The notes below the pieces were generated by a model. It ran no database searches. It saw only the letters and a program-made list of their open reading frames with translations, and was not told the DNA's origin. Below are positions 4,278-22,026 of a stretch of 39,863 bases of DNA, one piece after another (the stretch's first letter is position 1; each line of letters begins with the position of its first letter). Made by a program: the position numbers and the translations under genes. The DNA comes from a virus (Duplodnaviria; Heunggongvirae; Uroviricota; Caudoviricetes), in IMG/VR virus record IMGVR_UViG_2563366928_000005, positions 1-39,863 of that record; one strand, written 5' to 3'.

Positions 4278-4848
4278 TATCGCGTCCTCAACAATGAATT
4301 TTGTGATGCAGTGCCTGGTGCCTCCAGGTGACGTTAACCAGTTAACAATTAACGCCGGGTTAGTTGATGCTCGTTACGCCCGTAAAATACCGCCTTACTG
4401 CTTTAACTGTTCCGCGTGCGCATAGCCGCATTCACCGCATCACAAAATTCACTTTAAAAAGGGCGGCAGAGCAGTCACGGAGTAAAACTGATACCGCCAA
4501 ATGTCACCAGAAAATTGATAACAGAGGGCGTTGTAGCGGGGTTGTCACTTAAGCGTATGGTCAACCTGACAACCCGGTGCATTTTCTGGAGCAATGGAGG
4601 AAACCCCAGCCATACTTACCGCCGCGCCATTTCGCGGAGTGCCACAACCGGAAGCGCACGGTCGAACTAAATTTAACGACACCGTACAGAGAGACCAATT
4701 TCGCCGTGCGCTTTCGCGTTATGCCCTGACTTTTCAGGGACATATCCTTTCAGTAAGCTGTCAGTGCCGGATGCTCACCCGTGTCCGGCGCACGCACTCC
4801 ACCTGACCCGTGGAGAACTCCTTAATTACCAACCCTCAGGAGGGTGAA

Positions 4849-10939: not shown

Positions 10940-11176
10940 TTTTATGGATCACCTTTCTGATTGATTTCATATTGGCGAGGTGACGTGAGTTAAGTAGAAT
11001 GGCTGCGGGTGCTTGAGGCTATCTGTCTCAGGCATGAACACTGAAAGGCAGATAGAGAAAAGCCCCAGTTAACATTTCGCGTCCTGCAAGACGCTTAACA
11101 TTAATCTGAGGCCCAATCTATGTCTCACAAATGTAGGTTAGCCTCTTACGTGCCGAAAGGCAAGGGGAAGCAGGCT

Positions 11177-11332
11177 ATGAAGCAGCAAAAGGCGATGTTA
11201 ATCGCCCTGATCGTCATCTGTTTAACCGTCATAGTGACGGCACTGGTAACGAGGAAAGACCTCTGCGAGGTACGACTCCGAACCGGCCAGACGGAGGTCG
11301 CTGTCTTCACAGCTTACGAACCTGAGGAGTAA
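11177..11332 (+). CDS. hok: Hok/Gef-family type I toxin
   Basis: MKQQKAMLIALIVICLTVIVTALVTRKDLCEVRLRTGQTEVAVFTAYEPEE is nearly identical to HokD/RelF as I recall it; followed by a strong terminator. Confidence 0.85.
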   Translation: MKQQKAMLIALIVICLTVIVTALVTRKDLCEVRLRTGQTEVAVFTAYEPEE

Positions 11333-15493: not shown

Positions 15494-15543
15494 AACGGAT
15501 GAGATTGCAGAATTAATTACGCACCATTATTATTCTGCTCCCG

Positions 15544-15618
15544 GCCCTTTAGCTCAGTGGTGAGAGCGAGCGACTCATAATCGCCAGGTCGCTGGTTCAA
15601 ATCCAGCAAGGGCCACCA
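15544..15618 (+). tRNA. tRNA with CAT anticodon, most similar to tRNA-Ile2 (lysidine type); Met not excluded
   Basis: Cloverleaf folded by hand: acceptor GGCCCTT/AAGGGCC, D-arm, anticodon loop CTCATAA, T-arm GCTGG-TTCAAAT-CCAGC, encoded CCA. Confidence 0.85.
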
Positions 15619-15625
15619 TCACATA

Positions 15626-15702
15626 CCGCCATTAGCTCATCAGGAAAGAGCGCCAGCTTTCGAAGCTGGTTGCGCGGAGTTCGGGTCCCCGAAGGCGGTC
15701 CA
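15626..15702 (+). tRNA. tRNA-Arg-like (anticodon TCG), imperfect stems; possibly degenerate
   Basis: Acceptor CCGCCAT/AAGGCGG has one A-A mismatch; anticodon stem CCAGC/GCTGG, loop TTTCGAA; T-stem has one mismatch and atypical loop TTCGGGT; CCA encoded. Confidence 0.5.
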
Positions 15703-15715
15703 TTATCTGTATCCT

Positions 15716-15792
15716 GCGTTGTTAGCTCAGCCGGACAGAGCAATTGCCTTCTAAGCAATCGGTCACTGGTTCGAATCCAGTACAACGCGCCA
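15716..15792 (+). tRNA. tRNA-Arg (anticodon TCT)
   Basis: Acceptor GCGTTGT/ACAACGC, anticodon stem-loop ATTGC-CTTCTAA-GCAAT, T-arm ACTGG-TTCGAAT-CCAGT, encoded CCA. Confidence 0.9.
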
Positions 15793-15835: not shown

Positions 15836-16052
15836 TCTCACAATTCAGGCGGTTGACTGTTGTCTGGTTTGCGGGGAGTTTGTTAAAAGAAACTGGCATG
15901 GTGAATCCCCCTGTGCGGAGGGGCAATCAGCGAGTAGGTATATGGGATAATCGCGGATTCAGGTGCTGGTACTGAATTCACCGGGAGGCACCCGGCACCA
16001 TGCAATGGCACATAGCGCCACTCTCCAGCCCCTCTCCGGAGGGGCTTTTCTG
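15836..16052 (+). repeat. Promoter/terminator-like module, copy 1
   Basis: Blocks shared with copy 2: CTCACAATTCAG + TTGACT (15853..15858), TTTGTTAAAA, GCATGGTGAATCCCCCTG-GCGGAGGGGC hairpin, CACCGGGAGGCACCCGGCACCATG, terminator-like CCCCTCTCCGGAGGGGCTTTT (16029..16049). Confidence 0.6.
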
Positions 16053-16304: not shown

Positions 16305-16540
16305 CTCACAATTCAGTAAGTTGACAGTTGCCTGTCAGACTGGGCATTTGTTAAAAAAATTTCGCATGGTGAATCCCCCTGAGCGGAGGGGCGACTGGTG
16401 ACGGTATAATCTCTGATTATCAAAACGAGAATGACGCGGGTTTAGTGGCACCGGGCTGAACTCACCGGGAGGCACCCGGCACCATGTGCATGATGATACA
16501 GATACGCGGCTTTAGCCCCTCTCCGGAGGGGCTTTCTTAT
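16305..16540 (+). repeat. Promoter/terminator-like module, copy 2
   Basis: Same five blocks as copy 1; consensus TTGACA at 16321..16326 and TATAAT at 16405..16410 (too far apart to pair); terminator-like hairpin at 16516..16538. Confidence 0.6.
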
Positions 16541-16766
16541 GGACAAAAAAAGCCCGCGCTGGGAGACGCGGGCGGCAAGGAATAAACAATAAAACGTGAA
16601 GTAATATTTCAGCTGGCGAATAATACCCCATAGTAATCACTCTGCGCAACTGCGCGGTCTTTTTCGAATTGCGGGCTGTAGTCTCCCTTCTGCCATTGTC
16701 CTGTAACTTCCGGACTTCAGCCTGCTCCTTATCTGACTCACAACATTATCCCGCCCGGGAGGATTC

Positions 16767-18620
16767 ATGGCATTTAAACACTATGACGTGGTCAGGGCGG
16801 CATCGCCGTCAGACCTTGCGAAACGACTGACACAAAAACTGAAGGAGGGCTGGCAGCCGTTTGGTAGTCCGGTGGCCATAACCCCTTATACCCTGATGCA
16901 GGCGATTGCAGCAGAAGGTGATGTGGTCGTCAGTGGTGCAACTGAGCCGGAGTGGTACTACGTCATCGTACTGGCCGGGCAGTCCAATGCCATGGCTTAC
17001 GGTGAAGGGCTTCCGCTTCCGGATTCATACGATGCGCCCCATCCGCGCATTAAGCAACTGGCCCGTCGTAACACAGTGACTCCCGGTGGTGAAGTATGCG
17101 TATTTAACGACATCATTCCTGCTGACCATTGTCTGCATGATGTTCAGGATATGAGTACGATTAACCATCCCCGGGCTGACCTGAGCAAAGGGCAGTACGG
17201 CTGTGTCGGACAGGGCTTACATATTGCCAAAAAACTGCTTCCGTATATCCCTAATAATGCGGGGATCCTGCTGGTACCATGCTGTCGTGGTGGTTCGGCA
17301 TTCACCCAGGGCACGGAGGGGACATTCAGCGAGTCCACGGGAGCCAGTCAGGATTCGGCTCGCTGGGGAGTGGGTAAGCCGTTATATCAGGATCTGCTTT
17401 TCCGCACGAAGGCAGCATTGCAGAAAAACCCGAAAAACGTTTTGCTGGCGATATGCTGGATGCAGGGGGAATTCGATATGACGAATGCCAGTTACGCCCA
17501 GCAGCCAGCAGCATTTCTTGCAATGGTACAGCAGTTCCGTGCTGACCTTGCCGGGCTGGCGGCGCAGTGTCACGGTGGAAGTCCGGCATCAGTCCCCTGG
17601 ATTTGTGGCGACACGACATACGCGTGGAAACAAGAACACGGTACGCAATATGAAGTGGTATATGGTGCATATAAAGGTAAAGAATCCCAGCAGATTTATT
17701 TTGTTCCCTTTATGACCGATGGTAGCGGAGTTAATACACCGACAAACAACCCGTCAGAAGATCCTGATATTGCCGGGTCTGGTTATTACGGTTCGGCATC
17801 CCGAACGAACAAAAACTGGGTATCATCAAATCGCCCGACGCATTTCAGCTCATGGGCGCGTCGTGGCATTATTCCCGATCGTATGGCAACTGCTATTCTG
17901 AACGTAGCCGGTCGCACCTTAGCCTTCATTAGTGGTAAGGCACCGGAAATCAAACCCTCGCCCGGCGGCGACACGCCATCGGGGCCGTCTGAAGATGCAT
18001 CCATACGCACAATCTCCCTGTTGCCGACAGCCGGAGACGCTGCTGCGCAGGGCTGGAGCATTAAGAATGGCGGAATTCAGTTGTCAGATGGTGTATTTAA
18101 GATCACCAAGCAGAGCAATAAAGCCTGGTCCCTGACGCGCCCGGTGGATGACGCAGTCTCCCTGCTGACACGGGGTGGCAGACTGAGCTGTAAGTTTCGA
18201 CTGTCAGGCGCACTGACCAACAACCAGTTCGGTCTGGGAATTTATCTGTATACCGATGTAGCGTTACCTGACGTCGTGGCGATGACCGGGACTGGTAACC
18301 CGTTCCTGATGTCGTTCTTCACCCAGACCACAGACGGCAAACTGAATCTGATGCATCACAAGAAAGCAGGAAACACAAAGTTGGGCGAGTTCGGGAATTA
18401 CAGTAACGACTGGCAGACGCTGGAGCTGGTGTTCACCGCCGGCAGTGCCACGGTTACTCCGAAACTGAATGGAGTGGCTGGCCCGGCATTCCAGGTCATA
18501 AAAGACAGTCTGACACTGGGGCTGAATGCGCTGACGCTGACGGATATTACCAAAAATGCAGCGTATGGCGTTGAGATAGAAAGTCTGGTGCTGGAGATAA
18601 ATGCACCGGCATCATCATAA
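16767..18620 (+). CDS. NanS-p-like sialate O-acetylesterase (N-terminal DUF1737-like region plus SASA/DUF303 domain)
   Basis: 617 aa; GQSN block (IVLAGQSNAMAYGEG) typical of SASA esterases; GGGAGGA RBS; sits where Stx phages carry nanS-p. Confidence 0.75.
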   Translation: MAFKHYDVVRAASPSDLAKRLTQKLKEGWQPFGSPVAITPYTLMQAIAAEGDVVVSGATEPEWYYVIVLAGQSNAMAYGEGLPLPDSYDAPHPRIKQLARRNTVTPGGEVCVFNDIIPADHCLHDVQDMSTINHPRADLSKGQYGCVGQGLHIAKKLLPYIPNNAGILLVPCCRGGSAFTQGTEGTFSESTGASQDSARWGVGKPLYQDLLFRTKAALQKNPKNVLLAICWMQGEFDMTNASYAQQPAAFLAMVQQFRADLAGLAAQCHGGSPASVPWICGDTTYAWKQEHGTQYEVVYGAYKGKESQQIYFVPFMTDGSGVNTPTNNPSEDPDIAGSGYYGSASRTNKNWVSSNRPTHFSSWARRGIIPDRMATAILNVAGRTLAFISGKAPEIKPSPGGDTPSGPSEDASIRTISLLPTAGDAAAQGWSIKNGGIQLSDGVFKITKQSNKAWSLTRPVDDAVSLLTRGGRLSCKFRLSGALTNNQFGLGIYLYTDVALPDVVAMTGTGNPFLMSFFTQTTDGKLNLMHHKKAGNTKLGEFGNYSNDWQTLELVFTAGSATVTPKLNGVAGPAFQVIKDSLTLGLNALTLTDITKNAAYGVEIESLVLEINAPASS

Positions 18621-18705
18621 AAAGTGAGCCAGCCAAATGGAAGGTATCGTTAAACTCACCGGTAGTGTCAGTGGGTCGTCTGAGATGCCTGCATGAGTTA
18701 TCAGA

Positions 18706-18736
18706 GCCATCAGTACTTAACTGGTGGCTTTTTTTA
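18706..18736 (+). terminator. Putative rho-independent terminator between esterase and holin
   Basis: GCCATCAG-TACTTAA-CTGGTGGC (one mismatch) followed by TTTTTTT. Confidence 0.45.
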
Positions 18737-18770: not shown

Positions 18771-18986
18771 ATGTACCAGATGGAAAAAATCACAACAGGT
18801 GTGTCATACACCACGTCAGCGGTGGGAACGGGCTACTGGTTCCTGCAGTTGCTGGACAGGGTTTCCCCGTCTCAGTGGGCGGCAATAGGCGTGCTGGGGA
18901 GTCTGCTGTTTGGGCTGCTGACATATCTGACTAACCTGTATTTCAAAATCAGAGAGGACCGTCGTAAGGCGGCGCGGGGAGAGTAA
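18771..18986 (+). CDS. S: Pinholin, phage 21 S-type, with dual-start motif
   Basis: MYQMEKI dual start then [51 protein letters not shown], matching S21 as I recall it; GGGAGACGGGG RBS. Confidence 0.85.
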
Positions 18987-18990
18987 AGCG

Positions 18991-19881
18991 ATGAAGAAAA
19001 AATACGAACTGGTTGTTAAAGGGATAAATAATTACCCGGATAAGATTACTGTTACTGTGGCACTGGAAGTTGGTGGGTATCCGTCACTGTTGTTGCCAGA
19101 TGTGGCGATTAGTCTTGACCGTACTGAAGGTGCCACGCTGGAGTTTTACGAAGCTGAGGCGAAAAAGCAGGCGAAGCAGTTTTTCATGGATGTTGCTGCC
19201 GGGTTATGTGAAGGGGATGAGCAGTCGCCGGAAAAGCGCCCCGTAATTTTAGAGGCGCAGGATGTGTTGATAACCTACAAAGGAAAGCTACCGGGAAGAA
19301 TTACTTGTTCTCTGAAGATGCCGCCGTCAACACTGCGGTCAGAAAAAGATGATGTTGAATCACGTATTGAAAAACTGGAGAGCTACGTCGTTGAGCTGAA
19401 TAAGAAATGGTCGATATTGGTGCCTTCTGACGATGAAAAGCAGTTTGCTGCGTTTGACGATTATTGTCGGAAAGTGATGAGCAGAAATCTCGCAGAGTGT
19501 TTCAGTATTCATAATGATAATTTCAGTGAGCTGGAATGGGAGTGTAACCGGCCATCCTTTGTTGTATCCGGTGATGCTGGGAAAATAACCATCTCAGAAA
19601 ATGGGAAAGTAACACCTCCATCGCACCAGCACAGTGAGGAGCTCATTGAATTTGCCATTGATTACCTGAAGAACAATAAAAAGCAGGGGCTGATGAAGCG
19701 CGTTGGCCGTTGCATGGGATATCTTCAGGTAGCCGCTGAGATTGAAGCGCTGGCCAGTGGTGCTGATAAGGATGCAATTGTGCGGGAGGCTCTTCTTCGT
19801 GATTTTAATACTCCACCCTTTAAAAAAGTGCCGGCTTACTGGCTTCATCCGGGGCTGACTTATCTTAAAGTGCGTATTTAG
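18991..19881 (+). CDS. Hypothetical protein inserted between holin and endolysin
   Basis: 296 aa, no transmembrane segment or recognised motif; GGGGAGAG RBS; 4-nt gap from the holin stop. Confidence 0.6.
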   Translation: MKKKYELVVKGINNYPDKITVTVALEVGGYPSLLLPDVAISLDRTEGATLEFYEAEAKKQAKQFFMDVAAGLCEGDEQSPEKRPVILEAQDVLITYKGKLPGRITCSLKMPPSTLRSEKDDVESRIEKLESYVVELNKKWSILVPSDDEKQFAAFDDYCRKVMSRNLAECFSIHNDNFSELEWECNRPSFVVSGDAGKITISENGKVTPPSHQHSEELIEFAIDYLKNNKKQGLMKRVGRCMGYLQVAAEIEALASGADKDAIVREALLRDFNTPPFKKVPAYWLHPGLTYLKVRI

Positions 19882-19917
19882 TGGGCCAGGGACAGCGGCT
19901 GAATATTTAATATATCC

Positions 19918-20451
19918 ATGAACACCAAAATCAAATACGGCCTGTCGGCTGCCGTTCTGGCGCTGATTGCCGCTGGTGCGCCTGCGCCTGACATTCTCGA
20001 CCAGTTTCTGGATGAAAAGGAAGGTAACCACACCACGGCATACCGTGATGGTGCGGGTATCTGGACCATCTGCCGCGGTGCCATCCTGGTGGATGGCAAA
20101 CCTGTCGTTCCGGGCATGAAGTTGTCGAAGGAAAAATGCGACCGGGTTAACGCCATTGAGCGTGATAAGGCGCTGGCATGGGTGGAGAAAAACATCAGAG
20201 TGCCATTGAGTGAACCCCAGAAAGCGGGGATCGCGTCATTCTGTCCGTACAACATTGGTCCCGGTAAGTGTTTCCCGTCGACGTTTTATAAACGAATTAA
20301 TGCAGGTGATCGCAGGGGAGCGTGTGAGGCGATTCGCTGGTGGATTAAGGACGGTGGCAGAGACTGCCGTATTCGTTCAAACAACTGCTACGGTCAGGTA
20401 TCCCGTCGTGACCAGGAGAGCGCGCTGGCGTGCTGGGGTATCGACAGATAA
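19918..20451 (+). CDS. R: SAR endolysin (GH24 lysozyme with N-terminal signal-anchor-release domain)
   Basis: N-terminal Gly/Ala-rich weak TM segment YGLSAAVLALIAAGAPAP followed by E...D...T catalytic pattern (EGNHTTAYRDGAGIWTICRG). Confidence 0.9.
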   Translation: MNTKIKYGLSAAVLALIAAGAPAPDILDQFLDEKEGNHTTAYRDGAGIWTICRGAILVDGKPVVPGMKLSKEKCDRVNAIERDKALAWVEKNIRVPLSEPQKAGIASFCPYNIGPGKCFPSTFYKRINAGDRRGACEAIRWWIKDGGRDCRIRSNNCYGQVSRRDQESALACWGIDR

Positions 20452-20545
20452 GCAGAATATTTTGCTGAAAAATAAGGTATGGCCACGCGGGCGGATAACA
20501 CGAAATCCTGCGAACTGGCGAAACGTAAGTGAATAAAAGTAAAAA

Positions 20546-20580
20546 CCCCGTTTGTTGGCACCAAGCGGGGTTTTGTGTTT
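20546..20580 (+). terminator. Putative terminator between endolysin and spanin genes
   Basis: CCCCGTTTG-TTGGCAC-CAAGCGGGG hairpin followed by TTTTGTGTTT. Confidence 0.5.
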
Positions 20581-20610
20581 CCTGACTCCGGAAAAGTCAA
20601 AGGAGAAAGT

Positions 20611-20748
20611 GTGTTTGATTTTAGCAAACTGATTCGGGAGATTCGAGTGATGGCTGAAAAATTATCCACCTGGAAGTTCATTCTTATCTGGCTGGTGTTT
20701 GTGATTATGGCCTCCGGTTATTTCATCGGTCAGATACGCTGGTGGTGA
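20611..20748 (+). CDS. Small single-pass membrane peptide coupled to Rz
   Basis: GTG start 5 nt after AAAGGAGAAAG; 45 aa with hydrophobic core [18 protein letters not shown]; stop 1 nt before the Rz ATG; not in the ORF track. Confidence 0.35.
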
Positions 20749-20749
20749 A

Positions 20750-21217
20750 ATGAACCGCGTACTGTGCGTGGTCATCATTGCCCTGCTGGTGGCCTGTGGT
20801 GCGCTTAGTCTGGGGCTGAATCATTACCGTGATAACGCCATTACCTACAAAGCCCAGCGCGACAAAAATGTCAGAGAACTGAAGCTGGCGAACGCGGCAA
20901 TTACTGACATGCAGATGCGTCAGCGTGATGTTGCTGCGCTCGATGCAAAATACACGAAGGAGTTAGCTGATGCGAAAGCTGAAAATGAAACTCTTCGCGC
21001 TGACGTTGCCGCTGGTCGTAAGCGCCTGCGTATCAACGCCACCTGTCCAGGTCCCGTGCGTGAAGCCACCGGCACCGCCCGCGTGGATAATGCAACCGGC
21101 CCCCAACTGGCAGACACCGTTACACGGGATTATTTCACCCTCAGAGAGCGGCTGATGACGATGCAGAAGCAACTGGAAGGGGCGCAGGAATATATCCGTA
21201 CTCAGTGCCTGAAATAA
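20750..21217 (+). CDS. Rz: i-spanin Rz
   Basis: 155 aa; DNA and protein closely match lambda Rz as I recall it ([17 protein letters not shown]...). Confidence 0.9.
20970..21155 (+). CDS. Rz1: o-spanin Rz1 (embedded in Rz, +1 frame)
   Basis: 61 aa, lipoprotein signal with lipobox LVVSAC and Pro-rich mature region, fully nested in Rz. Confidence 0.8.
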
Positions 21218-21840: not shown

Positions 21841-22026
21841 TTACTTAATTATGTAATTCATACCCGAACTCTCTGTTGACAGCCTTCTTCTGCAGGCTTC
21901 AATAACCCACGCTGAAAAATTTCCTGAACCTTTCAGATCAAGAGCGATGTTAATTTGTTCAATCATCTGGTTTGGAAATCGGATGTTGCGGGTTGTTGTT
22001 CTGCGGGTTCTGTTCTTTGATGACAT
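21841..22026 (-). CDS. Possible ribbon-helix-helix DNA-binding protein
   Basis: 61 aa; basic N-terminus then strand-helix-helix pattern (IRFP, MIEQINIALD, FSAWVIEACRRRL). Confidence 0.4.
   Translation of the reverse strand: MSSKNRTRRTTTRNIRFPNQMIEQINIALDLKGSGNFSAWVIEACRRRLSTESSGMNYIIK

Follow-up and report, generated by a model that had tools for sequence, protein, structure and literature searches.

Within a 39,863-nucleotide (nt) stretch of DNA from a virus of the Caudoviricetes (IMG/VR record IMGVR_UViG_2563366928_000005, positions 1 to 39,863; here referred to as the window), an open reading frame (ORF) of 296 amino acids (aa) lies between the holin and the endolysin gene of a lysis cassette. 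Our analysis identifies this ORF, almost certainly, as an intact, selected gene of the late operon whose product belongs, as a long form, to the YdfR/DUF1327 family, a group of uncharacterised accessory proteins that move together with the lysis cassette in enterobacterial lambdoid phages. Gene, family and position are already present in public databases and very common, and the finding itself is no discovery. Beyond this identification, we propose with low confidence that the protein docks on a host factor, RNase E being the candidate. Our best explanation as a whole, with identity, architecture and mechanism taken together, has in our view about an even chance of being right.

The family assignment derives from profile and sequence matches. 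Residues 1-100 score 146.4 bits (cut-off 25; E 3e-43) with the Pfam family DUF1327 (PF07041), covering profile positions 1-88 of 93. The phrog_1085 profile aligns with the protein over its full length, residues 1-296 pairing with profile positions 1-296 of 296 (E 2.8e-188). An earlier note on this DNA had seen no recognisable motif in the protein, which was wrong judging from these matches. Residues 1-74 are 47% identical to YdfR of E. coli K-12 (over 74 aa, E 1e-21), and close relatives carry the RefSeq label 'YdfR family protein'. The context of the gene in the window is also the one typical of the family, i.e. a lambdoid prophage with a class II holin and a lysozyme, as in K-12 Qin, H-19B, mEp460 and the loci L001, L002, L012 and L015. 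The Pfam and PHROG families matched by the ORF are solely families of unknown function, and a search of NCBIfam returned no family for the protein. Neither Pfam nor PHROG gave a match to any lysis-regulator family.

To describe the molecular architecture, we used an AlphaFold2 model built from a 23-sequence alignment together with alignments of relatives; confidence is given as the predicted local distance difference test (pLDDT). The gene and its modules are as follows.

18991..19881, plus strand: long-form YdfR/DUF1327 gene, 296 aa, ATG start, TAG stop included (from the ORF list)
18991..19212, plus strand: N-terminal DUF1327 domain (aa 1-74; PF07041), three to four β-strands followed by a long helix, pLDDT 70-91
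19213..19344, plus strand: linker (aa 75-118), predicted to be disordered (pLDDT 26-42 over residues 73-120), common to the short H-19B form, which ends here
19345..19545, plus strand: acidic helical segment (aa 119-185), isoelectric point (pI) 4.5, heptad-like, helices 119-143 and 149-170 at pLDDT ~39-58
19546..19878, plus strand: conserved C-terminal domain (aa 186-296) with the motif GRCMGxLQxAAEIE ... PPFK ... W..PG..YL, without a Pfam entry

In the model of residues 1-72, the strands comprise residues 5-14, 18-27 and 38-43, and the long helix starts at residue 50 and is modelled to residue 76. The acidic helices of aa 119-185 probably form a coiled coil; in the alignments, no other part of the family is as mosaic as this segment, in which alleles differ by insertions and deletions. 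The best-conserved part is the C-terminal domain, which shows 18 invariant columns among relatives that are 32-43% identical (H213, I222, L225, G238, R239, L244, Q245, A247, A248, E249, I250, P275, K277, W283, P286, G287, Y290 and L291 in the numbering of the ORF). Modelled alone, this domain folds into a small three-stranded sheet and four helices (pLDDT 81; predicted template modelling score 0.73) and is basic (pI 9.3). The highest Kyte-Doolittle mean over 19 residues was 1.16 for the 296-aa protein and 1.70 for the holin, and no transmembrane segment was found in the former. The earlier note had called the protein soluble and free of membrane segments, in agreement with these values. The protein is thus predicted to be cytoplasmic.

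Structure prediction and remote homology searches, which the earlier note had put forward as a check, yielded no fold or sequence relative that points to a function. A sequence search of the PDB with profiles built from the full-length protein and from its C-terminal domain gave only chance-level matches (E >= 0.013), and a Foldseek search against BFVD returned nothing at E up to 0.001. A Pfam scan of the C-terminal domain from nine diverse relatives revealed nothing credible. The entries retrieved by a profile search with the same domain were all named 'hypothetical protein', came from Escherichia, Shigella and Salmonella and showed no informative domain fusions.

We then asked how widespread the gene is. 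A megablast match to the ORF was present in 3148 of 5426 complete E. coli genomes, mostly to its first ~330 nt; at least 80% of the ORF was found in 496 of them, and the last 342 nt, which encode the C-terminal domain, in 777. An exhaustive HMMER scan of 1.84 billion cluster representatives (clustered at 50% identity) yielded 74 family members. Scanning one genome per bacterial species located the family only in Escherichia and Shigella, and the profile search with the C-terminal domain extends this range to Salmonella. Among deposited phage genomes (tblastn), the holin type occurs in 434 records, the DUF1327 N-domain in 100 and the C-terminal domain in 5. The order holin-YdfR-lysozyme with an identical 4-nt junction is found in K-12 Qin, H-19B, mEp460 and Stx2_95, and the 4-nt distance from holin stop to ATG also in L002 and L012. 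Of these, phage mEp460, which is viable, carries a 104-aa DUF1327 gene in the slot, and the likewise viable Shiga toxin (Stx) 2a phage Stx2_95 a 329-aa long form. The earlier note had taken an uninterrupted S-R-Rz/Rz1 order as the norm of such cassettes. This holds insofar as the uninterrupted order is the commoner one in sequenced phages, as judged from 434 records with the holin type versus 100 with the N-domain; an occupied slot is nevertheless routine, as seen in the E. coli genomes and in Qin, H-19B, mEp460 and Stx2_95. The same counts, together with the 5 records that contain the C-terminal domain, suggest that a YdfR-type gene is not essential for lysis.

Copies of the 296-aa frame were checked in the window, L001 and L015, and all three are intact. 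In RefSeq, the near-identical copies in L001 (9001-9336; NZ_OZ546925.1) and L015 (1952-2287; NZ_CP023820.1) are annotated over their first 336 nt only, as 'YdfR family protein, pseudogene, missing C-terminus'. We reject this label of the Prokaryotic Genome Annotation Pipeline, as both frames are uninterrupted. Moreover, no annotated feature covers the C-terminal 342 nt in 9 of 12 records sampled from the 777 genomes that contain it. The pseudogene labels and the unannotated C-terminal region look like a systematic annotation artefact, and the family appears to be under-counted because RefSeq often annotates intact long forms as truncated pseudogenes. An ORF of 145 aa on the opposite strand (19594-20031) was rejected as a real gene, since it matches no PHROG family and does not resemble the antisense ORF that is annotated in L002.

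To gain insights into selection, we obtained Nei-Gojobori estimates of the ratio of nonsynonymous to synonymous substitution rates (dN/dS). The C-terminal domain gave a value of 0.16, and the N-domain values of 0.25-0.48 with synonymous sites near saturation. Comparisons of the full length with close relatives, which differ by few substitutions, gave 0.39-0.74, and the flanking holin and endolysin 0.03-0.16. Intact homologues in hundreds of genomes, a two-domain layout kept at 30-33% identity and the dN/dS of the C-terminal domain together argue for a real, selected gene. It might still be a functionless or decaying passenger that is retained through its position between two essential, tightly linked genes. 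Such a passenger would fit the many truncated or split forms (114 aa in H-19B, 103 aa in K-12 and numerous fragments of 60-200 aa) and a gene that is dispensable in most phages. We regard it as very improbable in view of the purifying selection on the C-terminal domain, the 18 columns kept invariant at 32-43% identity, the two-domain architecture preserved in distant relatives and the intact frame in the window, L001 and L015.

The closest known members of the family illustrate its forms. K-12 YdfR (b1555, P76160) is encoded in the cryptic prophage Qin, where the order essQ-ydfR-rrrQ-rzpQ places it in the same slot with the same 4-nt gap. EssQ and RrrQ are 79% and 88% identical to the holin and the lysozyme of the window, and together with the shared order and gap this indicates that the cassette of the window is homologous to that of Qin but contains a longer ydfR. 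K-12 YdfR shares the homologous N-terminal domain but, at only 103 aa, has neither linker nor coiled coil nor the conserved C-terminal domain; its N-domain is also far more diverged than the flanks. Long forms of 296-329 aa and 81-94% identity occupy the same slot in Stx2_95 (BCI50300.1) and the Stx2-converting phage 86 (orf5), and these differ from the protein of the window only by alleles and, in some, by a 33-aa insertion in the coiled coil. The viable Stx1 phage H-19B (AF034975.3) harbours an unannotated ORF of 114 aa, whose N-domain is 98.7% identical to that of the window and which shares the linker but ends there, without coiled coil and C-terminal domain. This ORF (L019, 1798-2145; AF034975.3, ~16461-16808) lies in the 399-nt 'gap' between the annotated S and R genes. 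Judging from its sequence, it seems to have arisen from the long form by deletion.

These forms reflect a pronounced modularity. DUF1327 occurs with nothing but a short tail (K-12, 103 aa), followed by the linker alone (H-19B, 114 aa) or by coiled coil and C-terminal domain (window), and in front of two or more further, unrelated C-termini (P0057, 305 aa; P0174, 206 aa). A Pfam scan of the alternative C-terminal forms P0057, P0174 and P0052 found DUF1327 only. In L003-L006 (4001-4897), the modules are split and their order is swapped, so that the holin is followed by a 213-aa protein made of the C-terminal module, a 75-aa DUF1327 protein and the lysozyme; in one prophage with split modules, the cassette lies directly downstream of the stx genes. 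As the two modules exist as adjacent separate genes in swapped order as well as in one chain, they appear to be functionally linked (evidence of the Rosetta-stone type). A recent accidental fusion can be rejected, because relatives at 30-33% identity (P0142, P0143, P0153, P0168 and P0178) share the same two-domain order.

In these distant relatives, in Salmonella prophages and in metagenomic contigs, the gene is found between Q and S, i.e. upstream of the holin, and the holin and lysozyme genes overlap directly. The placement between S and R is thus a trait of the E. coli lineage, and the proximity to the lysis cassette is the older one. In the distant relatives L010, L014 and L017, the gene before the YdfR-like one belongs to DUF4406 (nucleoside deoxyribosyltransferase-like), and the holin and endolysin after it are of a different type. 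L010 (4001-4591; 4909-5184) also contains a second small ORF, whose sequence resembles the strand-plus-helix pattern of DUF1327.

Could this variability reflect a conflict with the host or with competitors? The gene would then be diversifying cargo for anti-defence, superinfection exclusion or host interaction, with a hypervariable N-domain and swappable C-termini that track host or competitor targets. This idea is consistent with the mosaic slot, in which at least three unrelated C-terminal modules (P0057, P0174 and the window) stand behind DUF1327 next to short forms without a tail, and with an N-domain that diverges far faster than its flanks. The very narrow family and the wealth of cargo genes in the Q-to-Nu1 region of these phages would also fit. 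However, the ORF, P0142 and P0090 matched none of the PADLOC-DB defence models at E up to 1, and nothing among the Pfam, PDB and BFVD results for the protein was annotated as anti-defence. Without a promoter and terminator of its own, the gene would be a late one, expressed after most defences would have acted, and K-12 ydfR is nearly without reads under standard growth (PMC13232886). The elevated dN/dS values stem from few substitutions or from saturated synonymous sites and may reflect recombination. We therefore consider conflict cargo an unlikely explanation. The results neither back nor refute the anti-defence protein or other moron that the earlier note had named as a candidate.

The question of expression leads to the cassette itself, whose further features are listed here.

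18771..18986, plus strand: class II holin of the phage-21 S type, 71 aa (PF04971, Phage_holin_2_1, 'Bacteriophage P21 holin S', E 9e-33; phrog_9876 and phrog_20, 'holin')
18975..18982, plus strand: Shine-Dalgarno-like GGGGAGAG within the last holin codons, read from the sequence, candidate ribosome-binding site (RBS) of the 296-aa ORF
19918..20451, plus strand: endolysin of the signal-anchor-release (SAR) type, T4-lysozyme family, 177 aa (PF00959, Phage_lysozyme, E 1.3e-23)
20750..21217, plus strand: Rz i-spanin (PF03245, E 4.2e-51; phrog_13)
20970..21155, plus strand: Rz1-like lipoprotein ORF embedded in Rz (from the ORF list)

The holin stop codon TAA (18984-18986) is followed by four bases (AGCG) and the ATG of the 296-aa ORF at 18991, and the endolysin ATG at 19918 lies 36 nt past the stop of the ORF. 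ORF list and sequence thus bear out the coordinates, strand and layout that the earlier note had described, and the RBS it had claimed for the gene can be placed at GGGGAGAG inside the holin end. The holin has two possible starts (Met1 and Met4 in MYQM). The N-terminal segment of the endolysin is rich in Gly and Ala, which predicts a SAR-like enzyme, and an E-8-D-5-T motif can be read from its sequence. With a P21 S holin with dual start, a SAR-like lysozyme and an Rz gene with embedded Rz1, the cassette is of the phage-21 type. In K-12 EssQ, the dual start reads MKSM instead of MYQM, and the longer product of the window gains no extra lysine; this may be relevant for antiholin behaviour of the longer holin product. 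The holin allele of the window is very common, with 1406 records at 99% identity or more.

No sigma-70-like site was detected on the plus strand between 18600 and 19918, and the total counts in the region equal the shuffled expectation. Terminator-like hairpins are located before the holin (18703-18731) and after the endolysin (20542-20574), and two weak terminator-like matches with three G-C pairs each lie within the ORF. By established lambdoid biology, Q-modified transcription would read through both hairpins. As no promoter-like site was found on its strand between holin and endolysin, the ORF is most likely a late gene that is co-transcribed with S and R, and the co-expression with the lysis genes expected in the earlier note is likely. 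An autonomous moron with an internal promoter or terminator was rejected on the same search. In uninduced K-12 cells under standard growth, ydfR showed almost no RNA-seq reads (PMC13232886).

The protein might act on lysis. It could be a cytoplasmic regulator of lysis timing that binds the C-terminal tail of the pinholin or the precursor of the SAR endolysin and delays or sharpens triggering, comparable in principle to T4 RIII. RIII is a soluble cytoplasmic antiholin, and both are soluble phage proteins that could in principle act on the cytoplasmic part of the holin. Relatives in Escherichia, Shigella and Salmonella keep the gene next to the holin, in the S-R slot or just upstream of S, which would agree with such a role, and the 4-nt junction with an RBS inside S suggests holin-coupled expression. 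Furthermore, the Keio deletion of ydfR is among the hits for envelope leakiness with chlorophenol red-β-D-galactopyranoside in the supplement of Paradis-Bleau et al. 2014. In the same supplementary list, however, 'Empty' wells score similarly, and the leakiness could also stem from the kan cassette acting in a polar manner on rrrQ, the SAR lysozyme gene that follows ydfR.

A further argument on this point comes from covariation. In L002, the holin is 100% and the endolysin 96.6% identical to those of the window, but the N-domain merely 55%. In L003, S and R are 98.6% and 98.3% identical, but the slot is rearranged and its DUF1327 is 33% identical. Because the content of the slot does not co-vary with holin and endolysin, as would be expected of a physical partner, the target of the 296-aa protein probably lies outside the lysis cassette, which we take as evidence and not as proof. 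The gene is also missing from most sequenced phages with this holin type, its product lacks a membrane segment and a Pfam or PHROG match to a lysis regulator, and growth is unaffected by overexpression of ydfR (PMC13232886). Unlike T4 RIII, with which it shares no homology, the gene of the window shows no covariation with the holin and is dispensable in most phages with the holin type. The protein does not classify as an antiholin, since it shows neither a transmembrane segment nor, in Pfam and PHROG, homology to a described antiholin family. Thus, the lysis-timing regulator suggested as a candidate in the earlier note gained no support, as the same holin and endolysin alleles occur with very different slot contents and distant relatives lie upstream of the holin. 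We judge such a regulator improbable, and state with high confidence that the YdfR-family protein is not a core lysis component.

Where might the target be instead? A literature search found no paper that gives DUF1327 a function, only one mention in passing, and two papers on Stx-phage genomics did not discuss the S-R slot. The sole functional lead is binding to RNase E, seen for the 47%-identical paralogue of K-12. Using RNase G as bait in a two-hybrid screen, Gopel et al. (RNA Biol 2026, PMC13232886) recovered the first 72 codons of K-12 ydfR three times. In the two-hybrid system, the 1-72 fragment interacted not only with RNase G but also with RNase E, both at full length and as RNase E 1-597, and full-length K-12 YdfR interacted with Rne 1-597 (PMC13232886). 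Strep-YdfR moreover co-purified chromosomally encoded Rne1-598 together with abundant DNase-resistant nucleic acid (PMC13232886).

From this, we derive a tentative mechanism by analogy, namely docking on a host factor, RNase E, and modulation of RNA decay late in infection. The Q-dependent late promoter would drive the gene together with S and R, and its translation would use the RBS inside the end of S. Its product would stay in the cytoplasm and act on a host factor and not on the holin or endolysin. The DUF1327 domain would serve as a targeting module that docks on the catalytic N-terminal half of RNase E (and on RNase G), while coiled coil and C-terminal domain would constitute a swappable oligomerisation or effector part. 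A YdfR-type protein possibly binds RNA and would modulate mRNA decay late in infection.

Other phages encode proteins that target RNase E, for example T7 gp0.7 and phiKZ Dip. T4 Srd binds the N-terminal half of RNase E and stimulates the decay of host mRNA (Qi et al. 2015, as cited in PMC13232886). The likeness of the protein of the window to Srd, gp0.7 and Dip, i.e. that of a soluble phage protein contacting RNase E, would apply only if the binding of K-12 YdfR holds here. It differs from them in being encoded by a late and not an early gene, and it shows no sequence or fold similarity to anything annotated.

Several points weigh against RNase E docking. The link stems from a single study and from a paralogue at 47% identity without the C-terminal domain. 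Overproduction of YdfR was non-toxic and changed few transcripts, and the authors could not exclude a contaminant as the carrier of the RNA (PMC13232886). No fold or sequence relative from the PDB, BFVD and profile searches independently backs this function. Finally, the gene-order link with the holin holds down to ~32-43% identity, which would also fit a lysis-related role.

A more specific version of RNase E docking, by which DUF1327 would be a phage-borne RNase E adaptor with the C-terminal domain as its effector, is quite improbable in our estimate. The protein would then be a late, modular RNase E modulator that tunes the stability of the long late transcript and hence lysis timing. It would be just as speculative to assume that the tuned mRNAs are those for lysis, plus stx in Stx phages, and that the S-R slot is a hypervariable host-takeover locus.

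The surroundings of the cassette show further features. The gene preceding the holin encodes a 617-aa NanS-p-like esterase (Pfam DUF1737, SASA and DUF6645). Between endolysin and Rz, a 57-aa ORF (20575-20748, plus strand) with a hydrophobic C-terminal segment matches phrog_6632, a family of unknown function (E 1.4e-29); the hairpin at 20542-20574, of 13 bp, lies directly upstream of it, and the ORF represents a further small cargo gene within the lysis cassette. A 61-aa ORF (21841-22026, minus strand) between Rz and the terminase small subunit matches phrog_949, and its place is taken by genes of the YlcI/YnfO (DUF3950) family in the related prophages L002 and L006. The Q region is followed downstream by a trio of tRNA genes (anticodons CAT, TCG and TCT; 15543-15792, plus strand), as is typical for lambdoid phages of the Stx type; the CAT tRNA is labelled tRNA-Ile in the related RefSeq record L001. 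Two tandem copies of the small RNA (sRNA) family STnc100 (Rfam RF02076; 15867-16057 and 16335-16544, plus strand; 136 and 165 bits) occupy the ORF-free ~1 kb from the tRNA trio to the NanS-p-like esterase, which is the position of stx in Stx phages. Terminator-like hairpins at 16027 and 16514 are duplicated as part of this repeat. Rfam also matched the sok antitoxin RNA (11007-11182, plus strand, 120 bits) and the sRNA DicF (4461-4512, minus strand, 77 bits), both in the early prophage region.

The YdfR/DUF1327 family is thus found in over half of the complete E. coli genomes and stands next to toxin-release genes in Stx phages such as H-19B. Its long form contains a conserved C-terminal domain that is undescribed in Pfam and for which we found no structural relative. 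The RNase E lead provides a concrete hypothesis that is cheap to test. If it is true that the gene affects late-mRNA stability or lysis timing in Stx phages, this would have a bearing on the timing of toxin release.

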